64,000 bases of DNA, taken from contig JACKGF010000001.1 in assembly GCA_020632095.1 (NCBI GenBank), positions 605,366 to 669,365 on the forward strand. The letters are read 5' to 3'. The number at the start of each line of letters is the position of its first letter. Position 1 is the first letter of the stretch. The notes under the pieces are model-generated. The model worked only from the letters and a program-made list of their open reading frames with translations, was not told the DNA's origin and searched no databases. This document shows, piece by piece, positions 1 to 53,110 of the stretch. The position numbers and the translations under genes are program-made. The stretch comes from Candidatus Nomurabacteria bacterium. GTDB taxonomy: Bacteria; Patescibacteriota; Minisyncoccia; Phycocordibacterales; UBA918.

Positions 1-305
1 CCTGCCACGCACTGTCTCGATGTGGTTTTACCACACCGGTTAGAGACTACCAAAATGAAGGGAAGTATTTCACTGGCGACTCCACGGTACCCGAAAGCCC
101 GCTTCAAAGTCTTCTTCCTATGCTACGCATCAAATCAATAGCCCCAATACGAAGCTACAGTAAAGCTCCTGGGGTCTTTTCGTCTAACTGCAGGTACCCG
201 GCATCTTTACCGGGATTGTATTTTCACCGAGCAGGTCCTCGAGACAGTTTCCCACTCATTACGCCATTCGTGCACGTCGGAACTTACCCGACAAGGAAAT
301 ACGCT

Positions 306-525
306 CTATATTTCCTTCTCCTACAACTTATTTGTAGACATTTCACAATAGGACTCTATCTTAACCCGTTATTCCGAAGAACACTTGGGTCTGCAACATT
401 TGGTCTCTTGTTGGTTGCATTTGGATTATGTTTACATTTCTGCAAACAAGGTAACTATGGCTAGGCTGTTTAACCTATAACCGTTCCAATCCGTCGAGCG
501 CACTATTTATTGGATAATGTGCTCG
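306..525 (-). other. 220-nt insertion in 23S exactly after the U equivalent to E. coli U1931. Candidate small ORF-less group I intron or intervening sequence.
   Basis: rRNA-sense flanks read TAATCGTTCTAAGGT | insert | AGCGTATTTCCTTGTCGGG, against E. coli ...CGGUCCUAAGGU AGCGAAAUUCCUUGUCGGG. The upstream exon ends in U and the insert ends in G (...GGAAATATAG), as a group I intron would. L1931 is a known rRNA intron site. Confidence 0.5.
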
Positions 526-731
526 ACCTTAGAACGATTATAGTTATCGCTGACATTTACCGGGGCTTATACAGTCCAGCATAACAATCCGAAGATCATT
601 ACACCCCCCGTATTTAACCTTCCGGCATAGGTCAGGCGTCACCCCCTATACTTCCACTTTCGTGTTTGCAGGGAGCTGTGTTTTTGTTAAACAGTTGGCA
701 GGAAATCTTTCGCTGCGGCCCAATACACCAC

Positions 732-1029
732 TTTAGTCTCAACCAGGTTTGATTTTTAACTAAAGTACAAATCGTTGCCTCAAACTAAAACCTTGATTCA
801 AATTTCAGTGTGACAACATCAATAGTTCCGCCGGATTCAATATGCTTTCCAGTCAAATCTCCCAAGGGAGAGATATCTGCAGTAAAGCGAAACTCACAAC
901 TATCGCCATTGGCATCTACGCCACTAACGATGAATGTTCCGTTCGGATTGTCGAGACTTCCTTGCAATAAAGTTATCTCGACTGACCCTATTATTTTCAA
1001 TTTCATTCCACTTTCTCCTTTGTTGAGAA
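732..1029 (-). other. Expansion/insertion of about 300 nt in the 23S domain IV region (E. coli ~1700-1760, helix 63 area), closed by a long-range stem.
   Basis: Flanks 713-731 (ctgcggcccaatacaccac) and 1030-1048 (gtggtgtattgggcagacc) are inverted complements. Conserved 23S sequence resumes on both sides. E. coli has about 80 nt here against about 350. Confidence 0.55.
785..1006 (-). CDS. 73-aa ORF inside the 23S insertion, preceded by a canonical Shine-Dalgarno sequence. Function unknown; coding status uncertain.
   Basis: Minus-strand sequence upstream of the ATG reads aaaGGAGaaagtggaATG. The ORF lies fully within the insertion and on the same strand as the rRNA. No homing-endonuclease motif recognised. 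Confidence 0.3.
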   Translation of the reverse strand: MKLKIIGSVEITLLQGSLDNPNGTFIVSGVDANGDSCEFRFTADISPLGDLTGKHIESGGTIDVVTLKFESRF

Positions 1030-1573
1030 CAAAGTGGTGTATTGGGCAGACCTTATCCCTAAGTTACGGTCGCTTTTTTGCCGAGTTCCTTGAGGACCTC
1101 TCACTCGTTCGCCTTAGTCTTCTCGACTCTACCACCTGTGTCGGTTTGCGGTACGGAACCATTATGCTTAACCCAAACGAAGTTTTTCTCGGAAGCGTGC
1201 TCCCCACATCGGATCGGCCGTAGCCTCACCTTCAGACCCTACTCGGACTTGTGCCTCCCGGATTTACCAAAAAGACATCCTCATAGTTCCAACTCCAATC
1301 CAATAAGGAGCTGCGGGTACAACGCTCCGTCCCTCCATAGGAACATAACAGTGTGCAGGAATATTAACCTACTATCCATCGGGTCCCCCATTCGGGATTC
1401 CCTTAGGACCGACTAACCCTTCGCTGATCAACATCGCGAAGGAAACCTTGGTATTTCGGCGGGCAGGGTTCTCACCTGCCTTGCGGTTACTTGTGCCGGC
1501 ATTCTCACTCCTCCTCGCTCCACCGCGGCTCTCGCCTTGGATTCATCGCAGAGAAGGACGCTCTCCTACCACT

Positions 1574-1737
1574 CGTAGGCTTCATTGAGGATTCAAGCAT
1601 TGCTTGAATCAAGAAAATATTGATGAGGTAGATGGAATCGAACCAACGACCTTTACCTTTACAGGGTAACGCTCTACCGTCTGAGCTATACCTCGTCTAA
1701 TATTTTCTCAAAGAACTTTTCCTCAATGAAGCCTACG
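1574..1737 (-). other. Helix-45-type intervening sequence in 23S. An 18-bp stem encloses about 130 nt and replaces the short E. coli hairpin at ~1170-1190.
   Basis: Arms 1574-1591 (cgtaggcttcattgagga) and 1720-1737 (tcctcaatgaagcctacg) are perfect inverted repeats. Flanks align to E. coli CTGCGG / GGTAGGGGAGCG. Helix 45 is a classic site for RNase III-excised intervening sequences. Confidence 0.6.
1623..1695 (-). ncRNA. tRNA-like cloverleaf (anticodon GUA, class I-like with a 5-nt variable loop) inside the helix-45 intervening sequence. No encoded CCA.
   Basis: Sense CGAGGTA-TA-GCTC-AGACGGTA-GAGC-G-TTACC-CTGTAAA-GGTAA-AGGTC-GTTGG-TTCGATT-CCATC-TACCTCA-T. Canonical D-arm (A14, G18 G19). U33 and purine 37 present. 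Perfect T-loop TTCGATT. Acceptor 6/7 bp and T-stem 4/5 bp. Confidence 0.4.
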
Positions 1738-1821
1738 AATCCGCAGTTTCGGTAATATACTTGAGCCCCGATCATTTTCGGCGCAAGGACTCTCGACCAG
1801 TGAGCTATTACGCTATCTTTA

Positions 1822-1856
<35 letters not shown>

Positions 1857-2417
1857 TGAGGAATCCTCACCTCCTCATTTTGCACTGAGTATATATTTTG
1901 GGACCTTAACTGGCGATCTGGGCTGTTTCCCTTTCGACCAATGGAGCTTCGCCCCCATAGTCTAACTGCCGCGTTCTTGACCTGCTGGTATTCGGAGTTT
2001 GATAAGAAAGACGAGATTTCTCCCTGTTCTTTCTTTCCAGTGCTCTACCCCCAGAGGGAACACGCGACGCCAACCCAAAAGCTGTTTCGGAGAGAACCAG
2101 CTATTACGGAATTCGATAAGCTTTTCACTCCTTACCACAAGTCATCCGATGATTTTGTACGGTCAACCGGTTCGGGCCTCCACGACCTATTACAGTCGCT
2201 TCACCCTGCTCATGGCAAGCTCATCCCGCTTCGGGTCGTACCCCTACCCTATATTCGCGCTATTCACGCTCGCTTTCACTACGCCTCCGTGGGTTGCCAC
2301 TTAGACAAAGGATAAAGGTACACTCGCCGGCTCATTCTTCAATAGGCACGCCGTCGCCCCGCAGGGCTTCGACTCCTTGTAGATGTATGGTTTCAGATCT
2401 ATTTCACTCCCCTCTCC

Positions 2418-2463
<46 letters not shown>

Positions 2464-3013
2464 TTCAAGAATATTTAGCCTTACCAGTTAGTACTGGCAG
2501 ATTCACCCGAGCTATTCATGTCTCGGGCTACTCAGGAGTAGAACCAAAAGAGTCAGATACATTTCGAATACAGGGCTATTACCTACTGGGGCCACGCTTC
2601 CCAACGTGTTTTCCTATATATCTGTTTTGTAACTCTCCGCAACTAAATGCAGATTCTATCCTACAACCCCATACATATAAATACGTATGGTTTGGGCTTC
2701 TCCCGTTTCGCTCGCCGCTACTTAGGGAATCGCAAGAACCTTCTTCCTGATTATAATGGCACAACCGAAGTTGTATCTAATCAGAAAGAAAATTCCGTTT
2801 ATTGCTTTCTATTCCTACAGGTACTGAGATGTTTCACTTCCCTGCGTACGCTCCCTCATACAAGGGTCACTGCCGATGACAGTGGGGTTTCCCCATTCGG
2901 ACATATCCGGGTCAAAGGTTATTTGGCACCTCACCGAATCTTATCGCAGCCATATCACGTCCTTCATCGCTTCTTGAAGCCTAGGCATCCACCATACACC
3001 CTTTGTTCCTGTA

Positions 3014-3057
3014 AGGAACGTTGAACACCATCGCTACAGCGATGGTGTTCAACGTTC
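3014..3057 (-). other. Perfect 20-bp hairpin immediately 5' of mature 23S (leader / processing element).
   Basis: ggaacgttgaacaccatcgc-tac-agcgatggtgttcaacgttcc. Confidence 0.5.
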
Positions 3058-4871: not shown

Positions 4872-5546
4872 TTAATGTTTCTTAGTAACATCATCTATGT
4901 ACCGTGCCGCCGCGTCTTTCCCTCCCAAACCAAACGCCAGTCCAGTCGCCAAAGCTAAAGCAAATACGATACCAGTAAATAATGTGTTAACTAGTTCATC
5001 AGCAATCTCCAACTGATTTAAAGCAGCCATAATCGCGAAAGCAATCACCAGGTAGTACGCAATCCGGCCAAACAATTCTGGCTTCTTACCACCACTTGCC
5101 CGCAATGAAGCTTCGAGAGTCGTACGAGCCAAACTTGCAATCACAACTGCTGCAAACAAAATCAATACTGCAGCGAACACCTTTGGTAAGTAGCCAAAGA
5201 CTACGTCGTGCATAAAGACATTAACTTGTGACAAGCCGAGAATATCAAATGCCACCATCGCGAATGCCAAAATAACAAACCACTTAACCAACGCTCCCAC
5301 AAAATTACCAGGCAAAAACTGATGACCAGCCTTCTTTGATAATTCATCCACTCCTGCCTTGTCTAAAGCTTCATTAATCTTAAATGTCCGAAATAGTTTT
5401 CGAACTGCACCTCCAGCAATTCCGCCAATAATCCAACCTACAATTAATACCAGTACGGCCACGGCAATCTGAGGTAAAAATTGGTTTGCTCCACCCCAAA
5501 GGTTTCCCATCGATTCACCTAAGGGGCCATATATGTTATATCCCAT
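4872..5546 (-). CDS. Integral membrane protein, hypothetical.
   Basis: Multiple hydrophobic helices with repeated GxxxG-rich segments. Confidence 0.5.
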   Translation of the reverse strand: MGYNIYGPLGESMGNLWGGANQFLPQIAVAVLVLIVGWIIGGIAGGAVRKLFRTFKINEALDKAGVDELSKKAGHQFLPGNFVGALVKWFVILAFAMVAFDILGLSQVNVFMHDVVFGYLPKVFAAVLILFAAVVIASLARTTLEASLRASGGKKPELFGRIAYYLVIAFAIMAALNQLEIADELVNTLFTGIVFALALATGLAFGLGGKDAAARYIDDVTKKH

Positions 5547-5737
5547 AATATTATTTACTTAGTTTATCTACTAATAATATAAGTTTACTATTACTTGAAG
5601 GTTTGTCACCCTGTATTTAATAAGAACAAGGACATTTAGGGTGGTGTAAAATCATTTACATTATGTTAATCATAAGGCACTATGCTGGTTGCAAAAAATA
5701 AAGTTTTTTCTAACTGTGTTTTTTAGGGAGGGGTTAA

Positions 5738-5920
5738 ATGAGCAAATTTATGATATACAGCCTGACGGTTTTGGGAGGGTTCGCAATCGTTTCACTAATT
5801 GCGATCCTGATAATGTACCTCTTCGGAGCTGACATCCCCAAGATGTTCAGCTGGGCTTGGCTGACCCGTGACTACGGGCTGTGTGCGATGCCCACGAATA
5901 TGATTTGTCGATTGCACTAA
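5738..5920 (+). CDS. Small (60 aa) membrane protein.
   Basis: Strong SD (tagGGAGGggttaaATG). Single TM helix. Followed by a hairpin plus T7 terminator at 5949-5981. Confidence 0.45.
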   Translation: MSKFMIYSLTVLGGFAIVSLIAILIMYLFGADIPKMFSWAWLTRDYGLCAMPTNMICRLH

Positions 5921-5948
5921 TTTAGACAACAAGGGTCTAAAAATCACG

Positions 5949-5981
5949 GGCTAGTCTACCAAGACTGCCCGTTTTTTTATA
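5949..5981 (+). terminator. Rho-independent terminator.
   Basis: cgggctagtct-acca-agactgcccg followed by ttttttt. Confidence 0.55.
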
Positions 5982-5994
5982 TTTAAACTGGGGT

Positions 5995-6466
5995 GCATTC
6001 ACCCCAAGAGTACTTCCATTTTTATAGTCGACTGACGTCTCCTTAAAAATTAGGGCGCGCATAGGCCCTGCTGAAGTTGGTTTTTGTTGGAGATGGTTGG
6101 TGGTGCGCCGATATTTTGCCCTAGGAAAGGGGCAAAATACTGGCGATGCATTCACCCCAAGGGTACTTCCATTTTTATAGTCGACTGACGTCTCCTTAAA
6201 AATTAGGGCGCGCATAGGCCCTGCTGAAGTTGGTTTTTGTTGGAGATGGTTGGTGGTGCGCCGATATTTTGCCCTAGGAAAGGGGCAAAATACTGGCGAT
6301 GCATTCACCCCAAGGGTACTTCCATTTTTATAGTCGACTGACGTCTCCTTAAAAATTAGGGCGCGCATAGGCCCTGCTGAAGTTGGTTTTTGTTGGAGAT
6401 GGTTGGTGGTGCGCCGATATTTTGCCCTAGGAAAGGGGCAAAATACTGGCGATGCATTCGCAATAG
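5995..6466. repeat. 153-bp tandem repeat, three near-identical copies plus a partial fourth start.
   Basis: Copies start at 5995, 6148 and 6301 with one mismatch in total. Each unit holds hairpins ttttgccc-tagg-aaa-ggggcaaaa and agggc-gcgcatag-gccct. The minus-strand ORF 5937..6368 simply reads a 51-aa peptide three times. Confidence 0.9.
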
Positions 6467-9447: not shown

Positions 9448-9509
9448 AGTAAAACTATTATACCACCCCCACCAATCTCACCAACCCTAAGCAAATCGAA
9501 CAATCACTC

Positions 9510-9580
9510 TCCCTATTTAGAGACTCCCTAAGCCGGTCTTAGGGAGAGTAGTTACTTTCCCTAGGAAGGACCTAGGGAAC
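9510..9580. repeat. Two adjacent hairpins built on CCCTAGG / CTTAGGGAG motifs.
   Basis: ctccctaag-ccggt-cttagggag and tccctagg-aagga-cctaggga. Confidence 0.5.
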
Positions 9581-9992
9581 CCCCTTTATGCCCCCTATAA
9601 ATCTGAATTGTCGAACCAATTACAAACACTGAATATAAAATCACAAGCTCAATCAAACTAACTTGATCTTCTATACTAAACCAACCTCCACCATTAGGGT
9701 TGGATTTTAGATTTATGTAAAGTGAAATTAAAAAAATAACTGGAATAGCAACCCTTGCAAACTTCCACCAAGCATTAAAAACACTGTCTTTTAGTTTAAA
9801 TGTGAGCAGAGAGAAGAATAAGATGAAGGGGAAGAAAATAGAAAAATTAAAAATAACCTCAGAAGTTAAACTACACGCTATCGCATCAGAATTCTCATAA
9901 CAAATTTTAGGAATAGGAATTATTCTTAAAATAAACAAGTAAACCGTCCCTAACAACGAACCCCATATGACTATTCTTTTTAATTTATACAT
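9561..9992 (-). CDS. Membrane protein, hypothetical.
   Basis: 4 predicted TM helices. Directly downstream of the large secreted protein gene. Confidence 0.45.
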   Translation of the reverse strand: MYKLKRIVIWGSLLGTVYLFILRIIPIPKICYENSDAIACSLTSEVIFNFSIFFPFILFFSLLTFKLKDSVFNAWWKFARVAIPVIFLISLYINLKSNPNGGGWFSIEDQVSLIELVILYSVFVIGSTIQIYRGHKGGSLGPS

Positions 9993-9996
9993 ACAA

Positions 9997-12561
9997 TTAC
10001 TTATTATCTAATAATACACCGACAACTTCTTCCAACTCTAAATTTTCTTGAGCTGAAATAAATCTCAAACGCTCAAATATACTAGCTTGTCTTAATAAAA
10101 GTTTAAGAGCAATTCTTTCCCTTAAAACAAATTTTTCATTCTTTAGAGATTTTTTATAAGCTTTTTCAGCAGACTTAACCAATTTATGCATTAGTAAGTT
10201 AGGTAACTTATCAAGTTCAAAACCTTCAACTATTTGATACAAATCTTCATAGGTTATCTTTTTAGATTCTTTTATAGCCCCTTCAGTATCATAAGACACG
10301 TCTTCAGCTCCATCATTATCATAATCAACTACCAACACAGTATCCGAAATTGGTACTTCATTGCTTATTTCTAAAGTAACTTTTGTCCCTTTTGTAGACG
10401 GTATAGCTGAATAGGTATGCCTGGTAAATGACTCCCCTCTGTTTTCTTCCTCAACATCTAGAGTAAATGAGCCAGTTGCCTGACCATCAAGCATGAGGGT
10501 GAATTCCTCATTACTAGAAATAGAAATATATTGCAGTTCCCCATAACGTCGGTAGGTGGCAGAATCTACTTCGTTGGTAGAACTACTAACTTTTTTACCA
10601 GACGAGGTAACTAGTGACATATCCAGAGGAGAGTGTAGCTGAAAAACTAAACGCTCACCCTTAACGAGTACTGGTTCATTATCAGTCAAATAATCATAAG
10701 ATTTGTCTGACCCAGAATCAATAGTGTTAGCAACAAAATTTACTACATCAGGAACTTCTAAAATATTGTTATGTTTTCTGTCTATGTTGAATCTATTGTA
10801 AGCAGATAAATTCAACCACCACCGCTCCACCTTATCACCTGTCGCCAAAGTCAAGGCACTTGGTACTGTCACCGTCTCATCTCCATCAATAGTCATGTTT
10901 ATTCGGTAACTAATCTTAGGCTGGTATTCATTGCAGATAAATAGAGTCCTAGAAACACACTCTCGGTCAGAAAAGTAAGTTAGACTAGAAATGGTCTCTA
11001 ATCCAGTACCCCCTATTTGATAAACTTTCATCCCCTCACTTGGTGCAAAATTTTTCTGTACTATCTCTGTAGTTTCTGCATAATCAAACAGAAAATTATC
11101 TACTGTTTCAGGAGCTTCTAAATCTTCAAAATCTGGTTTAACACGCCCACTGTCTTTACTCAAAAATTGATAGAGTTCATCACGACTAGAAATATTTTCT
11201 CCATAAGTTTCAATCCATCCATTTGTAGCTTCTCCTGCCTCAAAAATTATTAACGGTGTTTCCACTGAATCAAAATAACTGGTAACTGGTAACAAATGAC
11301 GTGAAAAAGGCATAGTATTCATCAAACGTCTAACAACAGACTGTGGCATTACAGGATCTAAATCATCACCATGTAAAATCCCCAGAGCCGCCTTAGGTGA
11401 ACCTATTTGCGGCACAGCTACCAATATAACGTTGTCTATCTTATTCAAAAGCGGATCATTTGAATATTGTAGATTACTTATCAGTTGTTTTATTACTAAA
11501 CCGCCATTTGAATGAGCAACCACTGTCACCTTACCATTATCTGACCTCTCTGCTAAATCACTTAAAGTTTTGTAAAGAAGACCATCCTTTATGGTTTCCG
11601 ATTCCCCTAAAAATATATCGTCTGTACCGATTCTATAATTAGACTTGATTATGTCATCAAGCCTACCGCGCCAATCATAAGAAAATGCCACATAATCATC
11701 AATTAACTCGTTGTCTTTCATCTCTTTCAATTTTTTGATAAAAGATTTGTAAAGATTTAAACCTACCGCCTCATCTAATATACCCTCCGCGCCAAACTTT
11801 GTATAAACCTGATTAGTGCTTTGTCCGATAAAATTTGTTGTGAGACGAAGTTGTTGGCATTTATTGAAAGAAAACCAGAGTTGTCTTTCAGAATTAGATT
11901 TTTCACAAAATTCTCCCTCTTCATACAACCTAGAACCCATAATCCCCGGTAAAAACAAAACGCTCGAAGCTCCAGTTGGAACCGGACTTTCATATTCAAC
12001 AGTGAAGGGAATGGCCACTACTTCAGTGTAATCTGGATAGAAAGCATAAGCTGTTAGGGGTAGAAAAACGGCTTTAATCCACTGCTTCCAGAGCGGTTCG
12101 GCAGATGACTGTAAAATGGGTAATTCATACAATAAAACAGCCACGTACTCCCCTTCGGATAGAGGTGCTAGCTCAAAGTTATTCGCGTGGACAGTTGCCA
12201 CCTGTCGGTAGTCATCTCCTTCATGTTTAAATATTTGTAAAGGGTTAAAAGTAAAGTTATTAGGCTTATCTATAGAAAAAGAACCAGATACTAGCTCAGC
12301 TTCTGGCACCGATATAATTGAATTTGCAGTTACAGTTTGTCCATTGATAGTTACCGCATAGGTAAATGGAACGGGATCATCAGCATTAAAAGGGTTATTG
12401 CAGTCTACTATCGGATCTCTTTCTTCGACTAGACCTTCCCCGTAATCATATTCAGTAATAAAGTCACCGCAGCTGGCGTGAGTGTATAAAACGAAACTTA
12501 AGAAGAAGAATGTTATTGGTACTAAATATTTTATAAATGAAAGAGCTGATACAAATCTCAT
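9997..12561 (-). CDS. Large secreted protein with an alpha/beta-hydrolase (lipase/esterase, PGAP1-like) domain.
   Basis: N-terminal signal/TM. Nucleophile elbow VTVVAHSNGGLV. Confidence 0.55.
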   Translation of the reverse strand: MRFVSALSFIKYLVPITFFFLSFVLYTHASCGDFITEYDYGEGLVEERDPIVDCNNPFNADDPVPFTYAVTINGQTVTANSIISVPEAELVSGSFSIDKPNNFTFNPLQIFKHEGDDYRQVATVHANNFELAPLSEGEYVAVLLYELPILQSSAEPLWKQWIKAVFLPLTAYAFYPDYTEVVAIPFTVEYESPVPTGASSVLFLPGIMGSRLYEEGEFCEKSNSERQLWFSFNKCQQLRLTTNFIGQSTNQVYTKFGAEGILDEAVGLNLYKSFIKKLKEMKDNELIDDYVAFSYDWRGRLDDIIKSNYRIGTDDIFLGESETIKDGLLYKTLSDLAERSDNGKVTVVAHSNGGLVIKQLISNLQYSNDPLLNKIDNVILVAVPQIGSPKAALGILHGDDLDPVMPQSVVRRLMNTMPFSRHLLPVTSYFDSVETPLIIFEAGEATNGWIETYGENISSRDELYQFLSKDSGRVKPDFEDLEAPETVDNFLFDYAETTEIVQKNFAPSEGMKVYQIGGTGLETISSLTYFSDRECVSRTLFICNEYQPKISYRINMTIDGDETVTVPSALTLATGDKVERWWLNLSAYNRFNIDRKHNNILEVPDVVNFVANTIDSGSDKSYDYLTDNEPVLVKGERLVFQLHSPLDMSLVTSSGKKVSSSTNEVDSATYRRYGELQYISISSNEEFTLMLDGQATGSFTLDVEEENRGESFTRHTYSAIPSTKGTKVTLEISNEVPISDTVLVVDYDNDGAEDVSYDTEGAIKESKKITYEDLYQIVEGFELDKLPNLLMHKLVKSAEKAYKKSLKNEKFVLRERIALKLLLRQASIFERLRFISAQENLELEEVVGVLLDNK

Positions 12562-12571
12562 AAATTAGACA

Positions 12572-12724
12572 TTAAGTTGTGGTGATACCAGCGATTAGAA
12601 TCACTACCAAAACAGTAGCCACCACTGCCACAAAACTAAAAAGGAATTTATAAAAAGTCTTGTTAAGGAGCTTGGAATTAGCATCACTTGGACGTGGAGG
12701 GATTTGAGGTGACCATTGACTCAT
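12572..12724 (-). CDS. Small (50 aa) membrane protein ORF upstream of the large secreted protein.
   Basis: ATG...TAA. C-terminal TM helix FVAVVATVLVVILIAGI. Below the ORF-track size cutoff. Confidence 0.25.
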   Translation of the reverse strand: MSQWSPQIPPRPSDANSKLLNKTFYKFLFSFVAVVATVLVVILIAGITTT

Positions 12725-12792
12725 ACTGGTCAGTATAGCAGGTGATTAAAGAGGGTTTGGGAAAGTATTAACAGGTAACATGTCTCTGAGGC

Positions 12793-12835
12793 GGAGGTCG
12801 GTCCTCCGGAAAATTAAAGTGTGGTGTAATTTCAC
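12793..12835. repeat. Left terminal inverted repeat of the transposase unit, containing a REP-like hairpin.
   Basis: Its reverse complement attacaccacactttaattttccggaggaccgacctccgc nearly equals the right-end unit 13526-13567. Confidence 0.75.
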
Positions 12836-12849
12836 ACTTTCGAGCCTAA

Positions 12850-13527
12850 TCAATCTTCCACTTCTGTATAAGAAAGCCATTCTTCCATTTCGTCGTCGTA
12901 ATCTTTCTTATCTAGAAAATACTCTGGGAAGTTTTCAGTATTTAGAATTTTGGATTCTGGTCGCACAATACTATGGTCTAAATAACTAGAGTGGCTGTAA
13001 TTTCTAAGGTATTCTAATACTTCTGCCTTATCTTTTATCCCCTTCTCTCGCCAATCACTTTGAATCAATTTCACTGGATTCAAGTGAATATAGGAAAATA
13101 AATATTTAAGATACCCATCATCGTCAACGTGCTCCGACTTATACCTTCCTTCAAACAATGATCCAGTACGAAAGTTCTTCTTGTTAAAATACATCGAGTA
13201 ACCAGTTGATAATTTCTTCAAAAAGGCAGTCACTCCCCCATCAACTAGTGGTGTGAGCAGTATATGGAAATGATTTGGCATTAAGCAATACGCGCCGATC
13301 GCGACTTGCTGTTGACCTCTGTTAAAATCAAAAACTTTATCTTTATCAATATCTCGAAACTCAAACGAGGTAGTTCCATTCGAAATATATAATAACGCAC
13401 TAAATCTAGCGTAATCATCACTTGTGAGGAAAATTGCTTGTCGGGAGTTTCCTCTATTATATATATGATAGTACTCTCCTTCAGCAAACGGAATTTTTCT
13501 TCCTGACATCACTGGATTATACCACAC
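12850..13527 (-). CDS. Y1 HUH tyrosine transposase (IS200/IS605 TnpA-like / REP-associated tyrosine transposase).
   Basis: HUH motif CLMPNHFHILL. Tyrosine-containing YIHLNPVK motif. N-terminal YHIYNRGN. Flanked by inverted REP-like units. Confidence 0.75.
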   Translation of the reverse strand: MWYNPVMSGRKIPFAEGEYYHIYNRGNSRQAIFLTSDDYARFSALLYISNGTTSFEFRDIDKDKVFDFNRGQQQVAIGAYCLMPNHFHILLTPLVDGGVTAFLKKLSTGYSMYFNKKNFRTGSLFEGRYKSEHVDDDGYLKYLFSYIHLNPVKLIQSDWREKGIKDKAEVLEYLRNYSHSSYLDHSIVRPESKILNTENFPEYFLDKKDYDDEMEEWLSYTEVED

Positions 13528-13567
13528 ATTATTTTTCCGGAGGACCGACCTCCGGAGTTAGAGTACC
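13526..13567. repeat. Right terminal inverted repeat of the transposase unit, with a REP-like hairpin (ccggagg-accga-cctccgg).
   Basis: attataccacacattatttttccggaggaccgacctccggag. Confidence 0.75.
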
Positions 13568-13753
13568 TGGAGAGGGTTATTGGGATTCGGGGGTGATTTT
13601 CATGCGATTGCCCTGGTTATAGGGGACATTAGGGATTGGAGAAGACTCGAAGTTGCACTTTTTAAAAAAGACTGTACTATTATAAATACAAAGTGCCGCA
13701 AGGCTCCGAGAAACCCCGCGAAAGCGGGGTTTCGACTTTTCTACCCAATTCTT

Positions 13754-14158
13754 TTACGGACTCAGAAAACTTCTTAACTTCTCTTTAATCTGATTGAGCG
13801 TTGCCTGTGGTATTTCATACAACTTTCTATTGAACCGACGCACACTCACTAATTTCATCTGCGCTAGAATTACCGATACTTTCTGCTCGTGTATATCCAT
13901 GAAGTTAAAATAGAAATCTAAATTTTTTTGCTTTGACGATAAGGGAACACACCAGAACATATGATTGTTGAATTTTTTAATGACAAGCAGTGGTCTTGAA
14001 AAATTGCTTCCACCTCCATTTTGTTCATATCCAATATTCTTACCAACGGCAGACATCCAAACCTCTCTTTCCTTAGGAAAGAAGCCCACTTCAGCAGTGT
14101 CTGATTGGATCTTCTTTTTTAATGAATTCCAACCATCAAACTCTTTCAAATCGTCCAT
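13754..14158 (-). CDS. PemK/MazF-family toxin-like endoribonuclease with no obvious cognate antitoxin ORF.
   Basis: EVWMSAVGKNIGYEQNGGGSNFSRPLLVIKKFNNHMFWCVPLSSKQK matches the MazF/PemK core pattern (GxEQxGxRPxLVxS...VIxxPxTS). Confidence 0.55.
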   Translation of the reverse strand: MDDLKEFDGWNSLKKKIQSDTAEVGFFPKEREVWMSAVGKNIGYEQNGGGSNFSRPLLVIKKFNNHMFWCVPLSSKQKNLDFYFNFMDIHEQKVSVILAQMKLVSVRRFNRKLYEIPQATLNQIKEKLRSFLSP

Positions 14159-14189
14159 ATAATTAATAATAATATTGTATCACGCAAGA

Positions 14190-14470
14190 AAAACTACACA
14201 GACCTGTCTTTTGTAGACGTTATTACACCACACATTATTTTTCCGGAGGACCGACCTCCGGAGTTGATCTTTGTAGACGTTATTACACCACACATTATTT
14301 TTCCGGAGGACCGACCTCCGGAGTTGAAAACTACACAGACCTGTCTTTTTGTAGACGTTATTACACCACACATTATTTTCCGGAGGACCGACCTCCGGAG
14401 TTGATTTTTTCGGAGGACCGACCTCCGGAGTTGTTATTTTTTTCCGGAGGACCGACCTCCGGAGTTGTTT
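14190..14470. repeat. Array of REP-like palindromic units: five copies of the 19-nt hairpin ccggaggaccgacctccgg and three copies of a ~60-bp composite unit.
   Basis: Hairpin copies at 14243, 14303, 14380, 14410 and 14444. The longer unit gtagacgttattacaccacacattatttttccggaggaccgacctccggagttga occurs three times. ORF 14180..14371 is a translation of the repeats. Confidence 0.85.
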
Positions 14471-14483
14471 GTTTGGGACACCA

Positions 14484-14510
14484 AAAAGCCCCGCGGAGGC
14501 GGGGCTTTTT
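14484..14510. terminator. Bidirectional rho-independent terminator.
   Basis: aaaaagccccgc-ggag-gcggggcttttt. Confidence 0.6.
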
Positions 14511-14629
14511 GTGGCTTGGGCTTGCGCTTTGGCCGTTAGGTCTACAGTTTAGACAAGAATCTTAGCTGTATGAAATCTAAATGGATTAGATTTCAAGAGC
14601 GTCAGTTTCGAAGTCTTCAACTGGTCGAG

Positions 14630-16620
14630 CTACTTGTTGAGCTGTTGATTTCCAGCAGTAGTCTTGTAGTTCAAGCCATATACTCGAACTCCGTAGAATC
14701 CAGCTGTGGTTGGGTCTAGACTTACAGTAAGAGTGAAAGTCTTAGTCTCACCTTCTGAAACCTTGTATTGTGTACACAGTCTTAGCGTCTGAAGACAGTG
14801 ATTGTGTTGGAGTACCAGCATTTACTACTGTTCCTGAGCCATCTGTTACTTGGTAGTTAACACCAACAGTTCCCATTGCAGTTCCTGAAGCAGCTGTCTT
14901 GTTGATGAACAAGTCAGTATCAAACGCTGTTACATCAAACTTAAGAACGAATGTTCCTGAATCGTCTGTAGTGGTAGCGTCACTGTTTAGCTTCAATGTT
15001 TCAGTTGAGCTAACGAATTCGATTACAGCACCTTCAGTTCGAAGAGTGTGTTCGTCTCCTGTAGCTGTACCAGTTGAGGTAACATCATCAGCACCTTCAC
15101 CGTCGATATCACCGTCAGCATTAACGTAAGCTTGAACAGTTGTACCTTCGTTTCCAGCAGCTAATGACTTGAAGGTTAGAACCAATTCAACCTCAACTCG
15201 ATCTCCTGCGTCGATAACCACGTCACCATCTACGTTGAAAGTAAGAATTGCAGTAGAAGAAGCATTTCCTTCAACATCAACATCACTTATTTTAACGCCG
15301 TCGATAACAAGTTCTGCATCGTCAACGATGTTACCGTAAGTTGATGAAGAGACGTCAACGTATACAACAACTTCTGTAAGTTCGATGTCATTTGTACTGT
15401 CATCTGTATCGATATCAAATGCGAATACAGTGAAGTCATCTGATTTCTTGTTTGTTTCAACCTTTAGAGTAGTAGCGTCTGGGTCGTTTGATGAAGTCTT
15501 TACAATAATTTCATCATCAGCACCAGCTTCTTCTAGTGTGAATTCTGCAGTTTCGTTGTCTACAGTAGTATCTGTAGTTGCAACGCCATCAGCATCGAAG
15601 AATCGCATTGATTCTGTAGTTACAGTCCAAGTTGAAAGTTCTTCAGCATCAAGGTTTCCTTTGTACAGAAACTGCTACTGTGATTTCCACAGCTTCATCT
15701 TCCATAGCGATGATGTCTAGACCTGAGAATCGGATGATTCCGTCATCTTCGTCACCTAGGTAATCCTTCTTTGAATTTGCATCCTTTTCAGCCACTTTGT
15801 CACCGTCTACCCATAGAGAGACAGAATCAAAAGCGTCCCAAGCGTGTGCATTTGCATCATCACTTACGAAAGCAACGTCAAGTCGTGAGATTGAAGCGTC
15901 ACCACTAGCAAATTCAGCGGTGAAAACAGCAGCTTCTGCATCTTCAGCTCCTTCACTGATAGTGTCGTCTGAAGCGTCATCTGCTTCGTATGAATCTAGA
16001 TCAGCTTCTCCTGAAAGAGTAACTGTTTCTGAATCTTCTTCGTCCATGTCTTCATCTGTTGTGTCTTCTGGTGTCTCTACAACTGGGGCTGTTACACAAA
16101 GTGAGTTAGCCTTAGCTCGTGAAGATGGACCAAAGTATCCAGTTGGATTTACAAGTGCAGCTGGAGACAGGATGTCTGCTCGGTACTTAACTTGTAGCTT
16201 TGAAACAGCAGCTGCAGTCGCAGGACCGTAGAATTCTGTTTCCATTCCAGCTGAACCAGCGCCTTCAACTGCCACTCGTGTGTCAGCGTCAGCGTTTAGG
16301 AATTGCTGTAGCTTCATTACGTCTGCTCCCTTTGCGCCTGAAGACAGGTCACGTGTCCATGTGTATGGACATACTGATGCTGCAGAAGTACCACCTTGTC
16401 CAACTTGTGATTGAAGTGAGGCTACTTGTGCAAGCAGGTCATTGATCATTTTTTGTAGATCTTCGCTTGATTGTGCTCGCGCTGCTGGAGCGTAAGCTGC
16501 GAAAATCATTGAAGTTGCCACCGCAGCTACTGCTAGCTTTGAGACAACTGATTTTGTGATAGTAGTCATAACTATAATTATCTGTAATTTTGTTGTGCGT
16601 TTATTAATACGCATGCTCAC
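14630..16620 (-). pseudogene. Secreted peptidoglycan-binding acidic surface protein, interrupted by two frameshifts (three ORF pieces).
   Basis: Signal peptide plus PG_binding_1-like segment (DVMKLQQFLNADADTRVAVEGAGSAGMETEFYGPATAAAVSKLQ). D/T/V-rich low-complexity remainder continues through 15649/15608 and 14821/14748 in shifted frames. Confidence 0.45.
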
Positions 16621-53046: not shown

Positions 53047-53110
53047 TTGACTCTGTTATGAGCTGTCCAAGTTTCCCCTCCGAAGGTCCGTCCTTCGGAG
53101 TTATTAACTG

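Follow-up and report, generated by a model that had tools for sequence, protein, structure and literature searches.

A putative domesticated Y1 HUH endonuclease and its cognate hairpin beside a PemK/MazF-family gene in Candidatus Nomurabacteria

Does a Y1 HUH endonuclease gene set between inverted hairpins, a short distance from an array of the same hairpin and an orphan MazF-like gene, constitute a complete system of repetitive extragenic palindromes (REPs) and a REP-associated tyrosine transposase (RAYT), and does the MazF-like gene belong to it? The initial annotation of the locus, which was made from the DNA of Candidatus Nomurabacteria bacterium, had proposed the former and had thought the latter worth examining. 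We analysed the locus within a window of 64,000 nt (assembly GCA_020632095.1, contig JACKGF010000001.1, positions 605,366-669,365 of the forward strand). The gene probably represents a domesticated clade of Y1 HUH single-strand DNA endonucleases that is specific to the candidate phyla radiation (CPR), resembles REPtrons and TIRtrons, and possesses its own co-evolving hairpin. What RAYT-type domesticated HUH enzymes contribute to their hosts is difficult to tease apart in the known systems, whose genomes are large and carry REPs by the hundred. In the ultra-small genomes of the CPR, one enzyme and a handful of sites provide a minimal setting in which to study how the hairpin is recognised, where a nick would fall and what the system does biologically; candidate roles are to autoregulate, to rearrange a variable island of RNase genes locally, or to serve another function.

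The HUH gene had been called, by gene callers and by the initial annotation alike, as an open reading frame (ORF) of 225 aa beginning with GTG (12850-13527, minus strand). Because all homologues begin MSxRK, the start is most likely the ATG at 13509, which gives a protein of 219 aa; the six extra codons of the GTG start overlap a promoter-like box, TGTGGTATAAT. With this correction, the identification of a HUH tyrosine protein from its HxH and catalytic tyrosine motifs held. The protein matches Pfam Y1_Tnp (PF01797; E=1.1e-7, 32.5 bits against a cutoff of 23) and contains the motifs MPNHFHILL and YIHLNPVK. In an alignment of 26 sequences, with a mean column identity of 58% for the clade, H80, H82, Y140, N144 and P145 were invariant, as was YIHLNP in its entirety. 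A sequence search of the PDB returned no match to the protein. An AlphaFold2 (AF2) model generated with 26 homologues (pLDDT 83, pTM 0.83) found its top Foldseek match in E. coli TnpA-REP bound to a REP hairpin (4er8_A; E 3.7e-4, probability 1.00), followed by ISDra2 and IS608 TnpA.

A tyrosine motif of the form Y-x-x-x-N-P denotes class 2 TnpA-Y1 proteins, which are RAYT-type, and Y-x-x-x-Q denotes class 1, or IS200 (PMC6006769); the YIHLNP of the window's protein places it in class 2. Subclass 2.1 of Quentin et al. 2018 (PMC6006769) corresponds to the Group 1 RAYTs of Bertels (PMC5581495) and contains most TIRYTs (PMC3733652). Its signature was present in the form of NHFH, YIHLNP, a proximal 'SS' tail and an N-terminal YHIYNRGN, in agreement with the NHFH, Y[IV]HLNP, C-proximal 'SS' and N-terminal YH(V/I)xNRGN of TIRYTs and TIRtrons (PMC3733652, PMC6006769, PMC5581495). 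BLASTP against TIRYT sequences rebuilt from the study of Di Nocera et al. 2013 (PMC3733652, Additional file 5) gave 33-36% identity (E 3e-24 and 1e-26), compared with 21% (E 8e-7) for the E. coli RAYT, and the protein scored 39.4 bits against the NCBIfam REP_Tyr_transpos equivalog (NF047646), below its cutoff of 80. Judged by motifs and pairwise BLASTP, the protein is nearer to TIRYTs and TnpA-Y1 subclass 2.1 than to canonical RAYTs. It differs from TIRYTs in its CPR host and at the C-terminus, where the alignment to them ends at about residue 186 and the clade has a tail of its own. The distal C-terminal helix-turn-helix of subclass 2.1 (Bac_DnaA_C, HTH_23 or HTH_28-like) was not detected, there being no Pfam match beyond Y1_Tnp at E up to 0.1.

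Read along the minus strand, which is the sense strand for every local gene, the locus proceeds from the terminator of a surface-protein gene (~14486-14512) through five direct hairpin units, a 72-nt leader, the PemK/MazF ORF and its ~190-nt 3' region with a terminator-like hairpin to a further hairpin unit, the Y1 HUH ORF and, finally, a hairpin unit in inverted orientation (Table 1). The hairpin, CCGGAGGACCGACCTCCGG, is 19 nt long and has the form CCGGAGG-N5-CCTCCGG. It occurs exactly at 13537, 14243, 14303, 14380 and 14444, and with one mismatch at 12791 and 14410, making seven copies at the locus against a chance expectation of 0 (100 shuffles). The inverted copies around the HUH gene and the five-copy tandem array that the initial annotation had noted were thus recovered, the former as a 39-nt inverted repeat (12792-12830 and 13516-13554) that is 92% complementary, rising to 95% complementary when set against the array copies. 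The unit that flanks the gene is built from a foot (AACT), a stem of 7 bp closed by a 5-nt loop, a spacer rich in A and the sequence TGTGGTRTAAT, and folds as single-stranded DNA with about -9.7 kcal/mol (z = -4.8). At the foot of the hairpin, one strand reads (C/T)AACT and the other TTTTT; the GT[AG]G (GTAG) tetranucleotide was absent from this position.

The HUH gene is therefore flanked by cognate palindromes in inverted orientation, as in a canonical REPtron (RAYT subclasses 2.2, 2.4, 2.5, 2.7 and 2.8), and equally by terminal inverted repeats (TIRs), as in TIRYTs. The TIRs are partly self-complementary, like some of those of TIRYTs, and are likewise of low copy number. They differ from the TIRs of TIRYTs in lacking the common motif GGGGWSAS and in being built on a stable hairpin with an AGG...CCT core.

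Evidence that the protein and the hairpin belong together was obtained from an analysis of the family comprising 80 metagenome loci, the window and an orthologous locus (L018, from GCA_020632035.1). In 35 of 65 testable genes, the similarity between the upstream and downstream flanks exceeded the 99th percentile of cross-locus comparisons, the median being 34 for a gene's own flanks, 17 for cross-locus pairs and 16 for a control segment from the same locus. What the flanks have in common is, with few exceptions, a GC-rich hairpin placed 10-30 nt ahead of the ATG, to which a second is often added at or just after the stop codon. An AGG-N3-9-CCT core was found in 41 of the 53 distinct upstream hairpins, and each of the four Watson-Crick pair types occurs in their lower stem. 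Stem pair 4 alternates between G-C and A-T in the closest relatives, with compensatory changes on both sides in five sequences. The paralogues present in L039 and in L078 each carry a distinct hairpin of their own. Furthermore, the cognate hairpin lies in-frame within the coding sequence of 14 of the 53 genes, at residues ~52-61 or ~89-94, the latter just after the HUH motif. Taken together, flank similarity, covariation, and the paralogue-specific and in-frame hairpins argue that the HUH protein acts on the hairpin as DNA.

In-frame cognate hairpins have been reported in the enzyme genes of subclass 2.4 (Quentin et al., PMC6006769), found in Cyanobacteria and Bacteroidetes, where, as in members of the present family, some fall between the HUH and tyrosine motifs. 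Subclass 2.4 differs in its YIxNNP motif and in its long or double-foot REPs with GT[AG]G feet, and the window's own HUH coding sequence contains no cognate hairpin. Paralogous pairs of HUH genes within a few kb of each other were observed in L039 (2-629 and 1517-2189), L078 (1986-2643 and 3420-4092) and L104.

The upstream unit appears to serve the gene in a second way. In both the window and L018 it ends in TGTGGTATAAT, which constitutes a perfect extended -10 box and is separated from the ATG by 6-7 nt; in the downstream and array copies, TGTGGTGTAAT stands in its place. A TANNNT ending 4-11 nt before the ATG is present in 59 of 76 genes of the family, compared with 18.4 expected from shuffled upstream sequence. 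From this we infer that the upstream unit also acts as the gene's promoter, giving an mRNA that is leaderless or nearly so, and that the hairpin takes the -35 position. Since the hairpin occupies that position of the promoter-like box, binding by the HUH enzyme could autoregulate its own gene.

In most members of the family the hairpin takes the -35 position relative to a strong extended -10 box, which would also suit an account in which the hairpins are mainly regulatory or structural DNA or RNA elements (operators, insulators or terminators) belonging to a housekeeping-like gene, the array and partial duplications arose by slippage and unequal crossing-over, and the HUH substrate lies elsewhere. 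We consider this rather unlikely, given that the hairpin co-varies with the protein locus by locus, that it is also found downstream of the gene and at two recurrent sites in the coding sequence, and that no T-runs follow the hairpins in the gene's sense direction. A terminator scan did flag four of the array hairpins as intrinsic terminators on the plus strand; this strand is antisense to all local genes, the T-runs beside the hairpins correspond to the A-rich spacer of the next unit, and termination was rejected as the primary role.

The structure of the array bears on the activity of the enzyme. All five copies are direct, with spacings of 60, 77, 30 and 34 nt. On the minus strand, each unit starts with CAACTCCGG at a CAACT boundary and ends variably, giving lengths of 34, 30, 77 and 60 nt and one full-length unit. 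Part of the mazF leader is duplicated within the array (14327-14349, repeat family D4). In another sample of the same species (contig L022) the array has three units, including one of 49 nt with a junction absent from the window, such that copy number varies between samples (three units versus five). Seven junctions of the form X|CAACTCCGG were identified, in which X is unrelated sequence and shares no microhomology with CAACT; the left partners at the array junctions end in ...ATAA, ...AAAT, ...GTTTT, ...AAGAT and ...AACG. At an eighth junction, on contig L024, HUH coding sequence ending ...TTTGAAGGAAGGT is joined directly to CAACTCCGG. A fixed 5' boundary combined with variable 3' ends suggests site-specific breakage and joining. 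The coincidence of one exact common boundary with a lack of microhomology also speaks against hairpins that are merely regulatory and were multiplied by slippage.

By analogy with E. coli TnpA-REP and IS608 TnpA, the HUH enzyme would recognise the folded hairpin on single-stranded DNA, nick nearby through a 5'-phosphotyrosine link, and then rejoin the strand. Cleavage and strand transfer on folded single-stranded DNA have been described for TnpA-REP (PMC8266576). Joining of the enzyme-linked 5' end to any available 3'-OH would generate the fixed CAACT left boundary and the variable right ends, and the activity at this locus would yield local products only, namely the tandem array and rare copies elsewhere.

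The distribution of the hairpin separates this proposal from a canonical REP/RAYT system, in which the enzyme would spread REPs or REPINs throughout the genome and the window would show the REPtron core. A covariance model (CM), R1, was constructed from 15 units of the window and close relatives and used to scan the 64 kb with filters off. In addition to the seven copies at the locus, the scan returned a diverged unit at 53068-53106, a weak match at 9518-9556, and nothing else. The diverged unit is the CCGAAGG variant, the same as that flanking the L018 orthologue. The weak match was found on inspection to comprise two different hairpins and was placed outside the hairpin family. In 27 related loci, the 368 kb lying outside the gene and 600 nt to either side of it contained 12 distant copies, eight of which belong to this species' own array and four to other sites. 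The exact hairpin formed no repeat family in any of 185,579 representative genomes (the source genome evidently not among them), which gave 17 single matches at chance level.

Several features do recall the canonical systems: the inverted REP flanks and the Y-x-x-x-N-P motif, the single diverged copy 39 kb away, REPIN-like doublets beside family members L052, L053, L062, L066 and L081, a distal three-hairpin cluster in L053, and the many short contigs of this species that break at the array. Against these stand the yield of the CM at full sensitivity, limited beyond the locus to one diverged copy and one weak, differently structured hairpin in the 64 kb, the four distal copies in ~290 kb of related loci, an exact hairpin repeated in no representative genome, the missing GTAG foot, the score below the NCBIfam equivalog cutoff, and the closer relationship to TIRYTs than to RAYTs. 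We therefore regard a canonical REP/RAYT system as distinctly unlikely. Across the 64 kb and the related loci the hairpin is not a dispersed REP family, and the description of a TIRtron, a RAYT-like gene with private, sometimes self-complementary inverted repeats and often without genomic families (PMC3733652), fits better than that of a REPtron. Of the complete REP/RAYT system envisaged in the initial annotation, what stands is a Y1 HUH gene of the RAYT-type class between inverted cognate hairpins; the genomic REP family does not, the hairpin being nearly confined to this locus within the 64 kb.

Comparison with the E. coli TnpA-REP REPtron (subclass 2.2; 4ER8) leads to the same distinction. 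The two systems share the closest structural match, the Y-x-x-x-N-P motif, a single domesticated gene between inverted cognate palindromes and protein-hairpin co-evolution, and their chemistry is expected to be the same. Conversely, the proteins are 21% identical, the window's hairpin has no GTAG guide and a perfect 7-bp stem with no bulge, and E. coli has hundreds of dispersed REPs where the window has essentially none. Two adjacent GC-rich hairpins of another type, CTCCCTAAG-CCGGT-CTTAGGGAG and TCCCTAGG-AAGGA-CCTAGGGA, occupy a non-coding stretch between the DUF1360 and lipase genes of the window (9518-9585) and resemble an inverted repeat downstream of the L018 HUH gene (10768-10828).

How the gene came to be at this site was addressed by its distribution. 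In a search with the HUH protein, at least 7,993 of 8,000 scored candidates matched at E <= 0.001, which makes the clade a very large one of more than 7,900 protein clusters; the best 120 were 57-100% identical, and among the matches listed all those with an organism name were Nomurabacteria, Paceibacteria or Patescibacteria (CPR). The family is extremely common in CPR and typical of streamlined genomes, in contrast to the initial annotation, which had considered such a system unexpected in a small genome. A full-text search of the literature found no paper naming both RAYT or TnpA-REP and CPR, and CPR are unmentioned in the surveys of TIRYTs, subclass 2.1 and Group 1.

The gene is present in a single copy in the 64 kb. 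In L018, where the orthologue is 80% identical, the genes to either side are again the surface-protein gene and the LCAT-like lipase gene, and a neighbourhood of FtsK, a 245-aa protein and the surface protein on one side and L10 and L12 on the other is common to L053, L062, L065, L072 and L073, at ~50% protein identity. A DUF1360 homologue near the HUH gene was detected only in L018, L072 and L078. No relatives of the protein were found in 2.9 million viral contigs. Because synteny is kept at ~50% identity and the gene is absent from viral contigs, its behaviour is that of vertical inheritance and not of an insertion sequence: it has been passed on vertically and keeps one place in the chromosome, with the surface-protein gene on one side and DUF1360/L10/L12 on the other. 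Housekeeping-like, vertically inherited behaviour has been described for RAYTs (PMC5581495).

These observations also bear on whether the locus is a mobile element carrying mazF as cargo, either an active insertion sequence of the IS200/IS605 type or one of another kind that was acquired recently. The name of the Pfam domain ('Transposase IS200 like'), the hairpins at both ends and the database annotations of 'transposase' would all point that way. However, the motif is Y...NP and not Y...Q, there is no tnpB, the hairpins are inverted and not direct, and the one copy in the window occupies the same site across ~50%-identical lineages and has no viral relatives, leaving this explanation extremely improbable.

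We turn to the MazF-like gene, whose identification as a toxin-type ORF without a recognisable antitoxin was borne out. The ORF matches Pfam PemK_toxin (E=2.2e-8, 34.7 bits; cutoff 23.1) and PHROG 9567, 'MazF-like growth inhibitor' (E=6.7e-15), scores 19.8 bits against NCBIfam MazF (cutoff 120), and gives weak PDB profile matches to EndoA, PemK and MazF; the pLDDT of its AlphaFold model, 44, was too low for a fold search. Within the family, R55-P56 and S74 are invariant and T75 nearly so, in alignment with the EndoA core, and the N-terminal extension of ~30 aa bears the motif F-D-x-W-N-x-x-K-K-x-I. Seven contigs from other samples carry the ORF at 100% identity, and 612 homologues, 129-134 aa long and 63-80% identical, were found, all the named ones from CPR. 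By these comparisons the ORF is intact and conserved, not a fragment. It resembles the type II toxins MazF, PemK and EndoA in its Pfam and PHROG matches and in the conserved Arg-Pro and Ser/Thr positions, and is unlike them in having no adjacent antitoxin in four genomic contexts, in its N-terminal extension and in falling below the NCBIfam MazF cutoff.

No plausible protein antitoxin ORF of at least 20 aa was found on either side of the gene, and none was found in three other genomic contexts of its homologues. Three candidates were rejected: ORFs of 63 and 59 aa in the array are translations of the repeat whose frame shifts with unit length, and an ORF of 49 aa that precedes mazF in L029 derives from the 5' part of mazF, copied there by a tandem duplication of 262 nt. 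PADLOC defence models matched neither the HUH nor the MazF-like protein, which gives no support for a known defence system.

The missing protein antitoxin would be explained by a type III-like toxin-antitoxin system, in which RNA from the array neutralises the MazF-fold RNase as ToxI does ToxN. In keeping with this, the direct repeats lie immediately upstream of mazF on the same strand, the long units each have a promoter-like box with a hairpin and T-run following before the toxin gene, and in L038 another PemK-type gene stands in an equivalent arrangement. Nevertheless, such a system is very improbable: the same units flank the HUH gene in L018, where mazF is absent, the units are irregular in length (30-77 nt), mazF homologues in L031 and L034 have no tandem array, and the protein matches PemK/MazF and not the ToxN, CptN or TenpN families.

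A short block antisense to the 3' end of the mazF transcript (13660-13735, plus strand) combines a promoter-like stretch with two hairpins, a small one of GNRA type (GCC-GCAA-GGC) and a terminator-like one that has a T-run; it is kept downstream of the homologous gene in L031 and could encode a short antisense RNA. The 3' region of the mazF segment is likewise kept there and shares sequence with the L031 repeat family D2/D3.

Is the MazF-like gene, then, a partner of the HUH gene? A PemK-type gene adjoins the HUH gene in two lineages out of ~75 loci, namely the window (with L022) and L038, and mazF is absent from the orthologous, 80%-identical locus L018. In relatives with no HUH gene at the site (L029-L033), the slot is a variable island of PemK-type and NYN genes between direct repeats of 107-113 nt. 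The mazF-like family is at a synteny breakpoint in Zambryskibacteria (L034-L037) too. Accordingly, a role for MazF as an integral addiction or defence partner of a genome-wide REP family is not supported by the data. The gene would instead be an independent, antitoxin-less member of the PemK family from a variable island of small RNase genes, now situated between two direct hairpin units.

In L029 (4300-7800) and L031 (3500-6500), in the slot equivalent to ~9450-14750 of the window, PemK-type and NYN RNase genes alternate in both orientations, and the highly similar repeats contain hairpins that resemble terminators. In L029 the 5' boundary of the repeat is again fixed, at GTAATGGGGACAGG, and is joined to variable left partners, including the 262-nt tandem duplication, which starts inside mazF. 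In the Zambryskibacteria contigs (5405-6400), gene order changes directly downstream of the mazF homologue, with three different right-hand neighbours following a non-coding gap of 600-950 nt.

What examining HUH and mazF together, as had been suggested, brought out is a physical association. PemK-type genes are bracketed by hairpin units in the window, in L038 and in L029, three related genomes. In L038 the order of TAACTCCG hairpin units, PemK-type gene (30% identical to that of the window), hairpin and HUH gene is the same; in L029 degenerate units, TAACTCCGAAGGACGGGCCCACGG, precede three PemK-type genes or fragments. Moreover, contig L025 (847 nt, from a k=141 assembly) has an exact terminal overlap of 141 nt and thus represents a circular or tandem sequence of 706 nt. 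This form consists of one hairpin unit, mazF and the 3' region, and its length is exactly the interval between the two direct units on either side of mazF. The window lacks its hybrid junction (...GGTACTCT|AACTCCGG...TGTGGTGTAATAACG), across which identity is limited to 39 nt. The form is either a free circle or a tandem duplication, and would have been made either by the HUH enzyme, by host recombination or by slippage. Natural populations thus seem to harbour the mazF segment rearranged into a circle or tandem form of 706 nt, and the rearranged contigs suggest that the system is active there.

A more far-reaching interpretation is that the enzyme and the hairpin units constitute a gene-cassette platform, a single-strand, HUH-driven analogue of the integron, in which small RNase or toxin genes of the PemK/MazF type that lie between direct hairpin units would leave as circles and be inserted again at the hairpin site adjoining the enzyme gene. 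The 706-nt contig, the order of hairpin units, PemK-type gene, hairpin and HUH gene in two lineages, and the hairpin relics of L029 are the grounds for proposing it; we think it unlikely.

A number of points weigh against a domesticated endonuclease acting on its own hairpin as set out above. The position of the nick is read from the junctions alone. Partial duplications in L018, L038, L039 and L078 break in or beside the loop, with microhomology, and hairpin-stimulated replication slippage could explain these with no enzyme; those of L038, L039 and L078 would equally suit hairpins of a regulatory nature. The same applies to the L025 junction, which, lying inside a 39-nt identity, is equally explained by homologous recombination or unequal crossing-over. 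Both L024 and L025 are metagenome assemblies, in which chimeric paths are possible. The placement in subclass 2.1 depends on motifs and pairwise BLAST, and that subclass has been described as having no REP-like structures nearby (PMC6006769). Finally, the scan covered ~6% of a genome of perhaps ~1 Mb (the longest contig with an identical MazF is 997 kb), which may hold up to a few tens of dispersed copies.

Table 1. Features of the HUH-hairpin-mazF locus, with positions in the 64,000-nt window
Feature	Position	Strand	Basis
Y1 HUH endonuclease gene (TIRYT / TnpA-Y1 subclass 2.1-like, 'RAYT-like')	12850-13509	-	Pfam PF01797, invariant motifs, AF2 model, BLASTP
Downstream inverted hairpin unit: hairpin 12791-12809, then AAAATTAAAGTGTGGTGTAAT	12791-12830	+	Inverted repeats; CM R1 36.7 bits; DNA fold -7.9 kcal/mol
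Upstream hairpin unit with promoter-like box: AACT foot 13556-13559; hairpin 13537-13555; TGTG 13523-13526; TATAAT 13516-13521; 6 nt; ATG	13510-13561	-	CM R1 48.1 bits; layout also in orthologue L018
mazF segment 3' region: bidirectional terminator-like hairpin 13710-13733 and second small hairpin	13562-13753	-	Terminator scan
Intact solo PemK/MazF-family gene, 134 aa, with ~30-aa N-terminal extension	13754-14158	-	Pfam, PHROG, conservation
mazF leader: extended -10-like box TGATACAAT 14174-14182; imperfect hairpin and T-run CTACAAAAGACAGGTCTGTGTAGTTTTT	14159-14230	-	
Direct array of five hairpin units; hairpins at 14243, 14303, 14380, 14410, 14444	14231-14470	-	
Lone dispersed, diverged hairpin unit TAACTCCGAAGGACGGACCTTCGG	53068-53106	-	CM R1 40.5 bits; DNA fold -10.5 kcal/mol

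Two further observations were made in the window. The surface-protein gene that precedes the array is split into ORFs of 286 and 323 aa (14748-16620, minus strand), where L022, from the same species, has a single ORF of 678 aa (204-2240). The two versions differ by ~20 gap openings in 2.5 kb, other stretches being 99.95-100% identical, and the gene is either hypervariable or pseudogenised, or one of the assemblies contains indel errors. At the start of the window (1-3015, minus strand), a match to 23S rRNA spreads model positions 1-2265 over 3015 nt, corresponding to ~750 nt of insertions. A tRNA-Tyr (GTA) was called by both ARAGORN and Rfam within this span (1622-1695, minus strand), a tRNA-like element in a 23S insertion being unusual.

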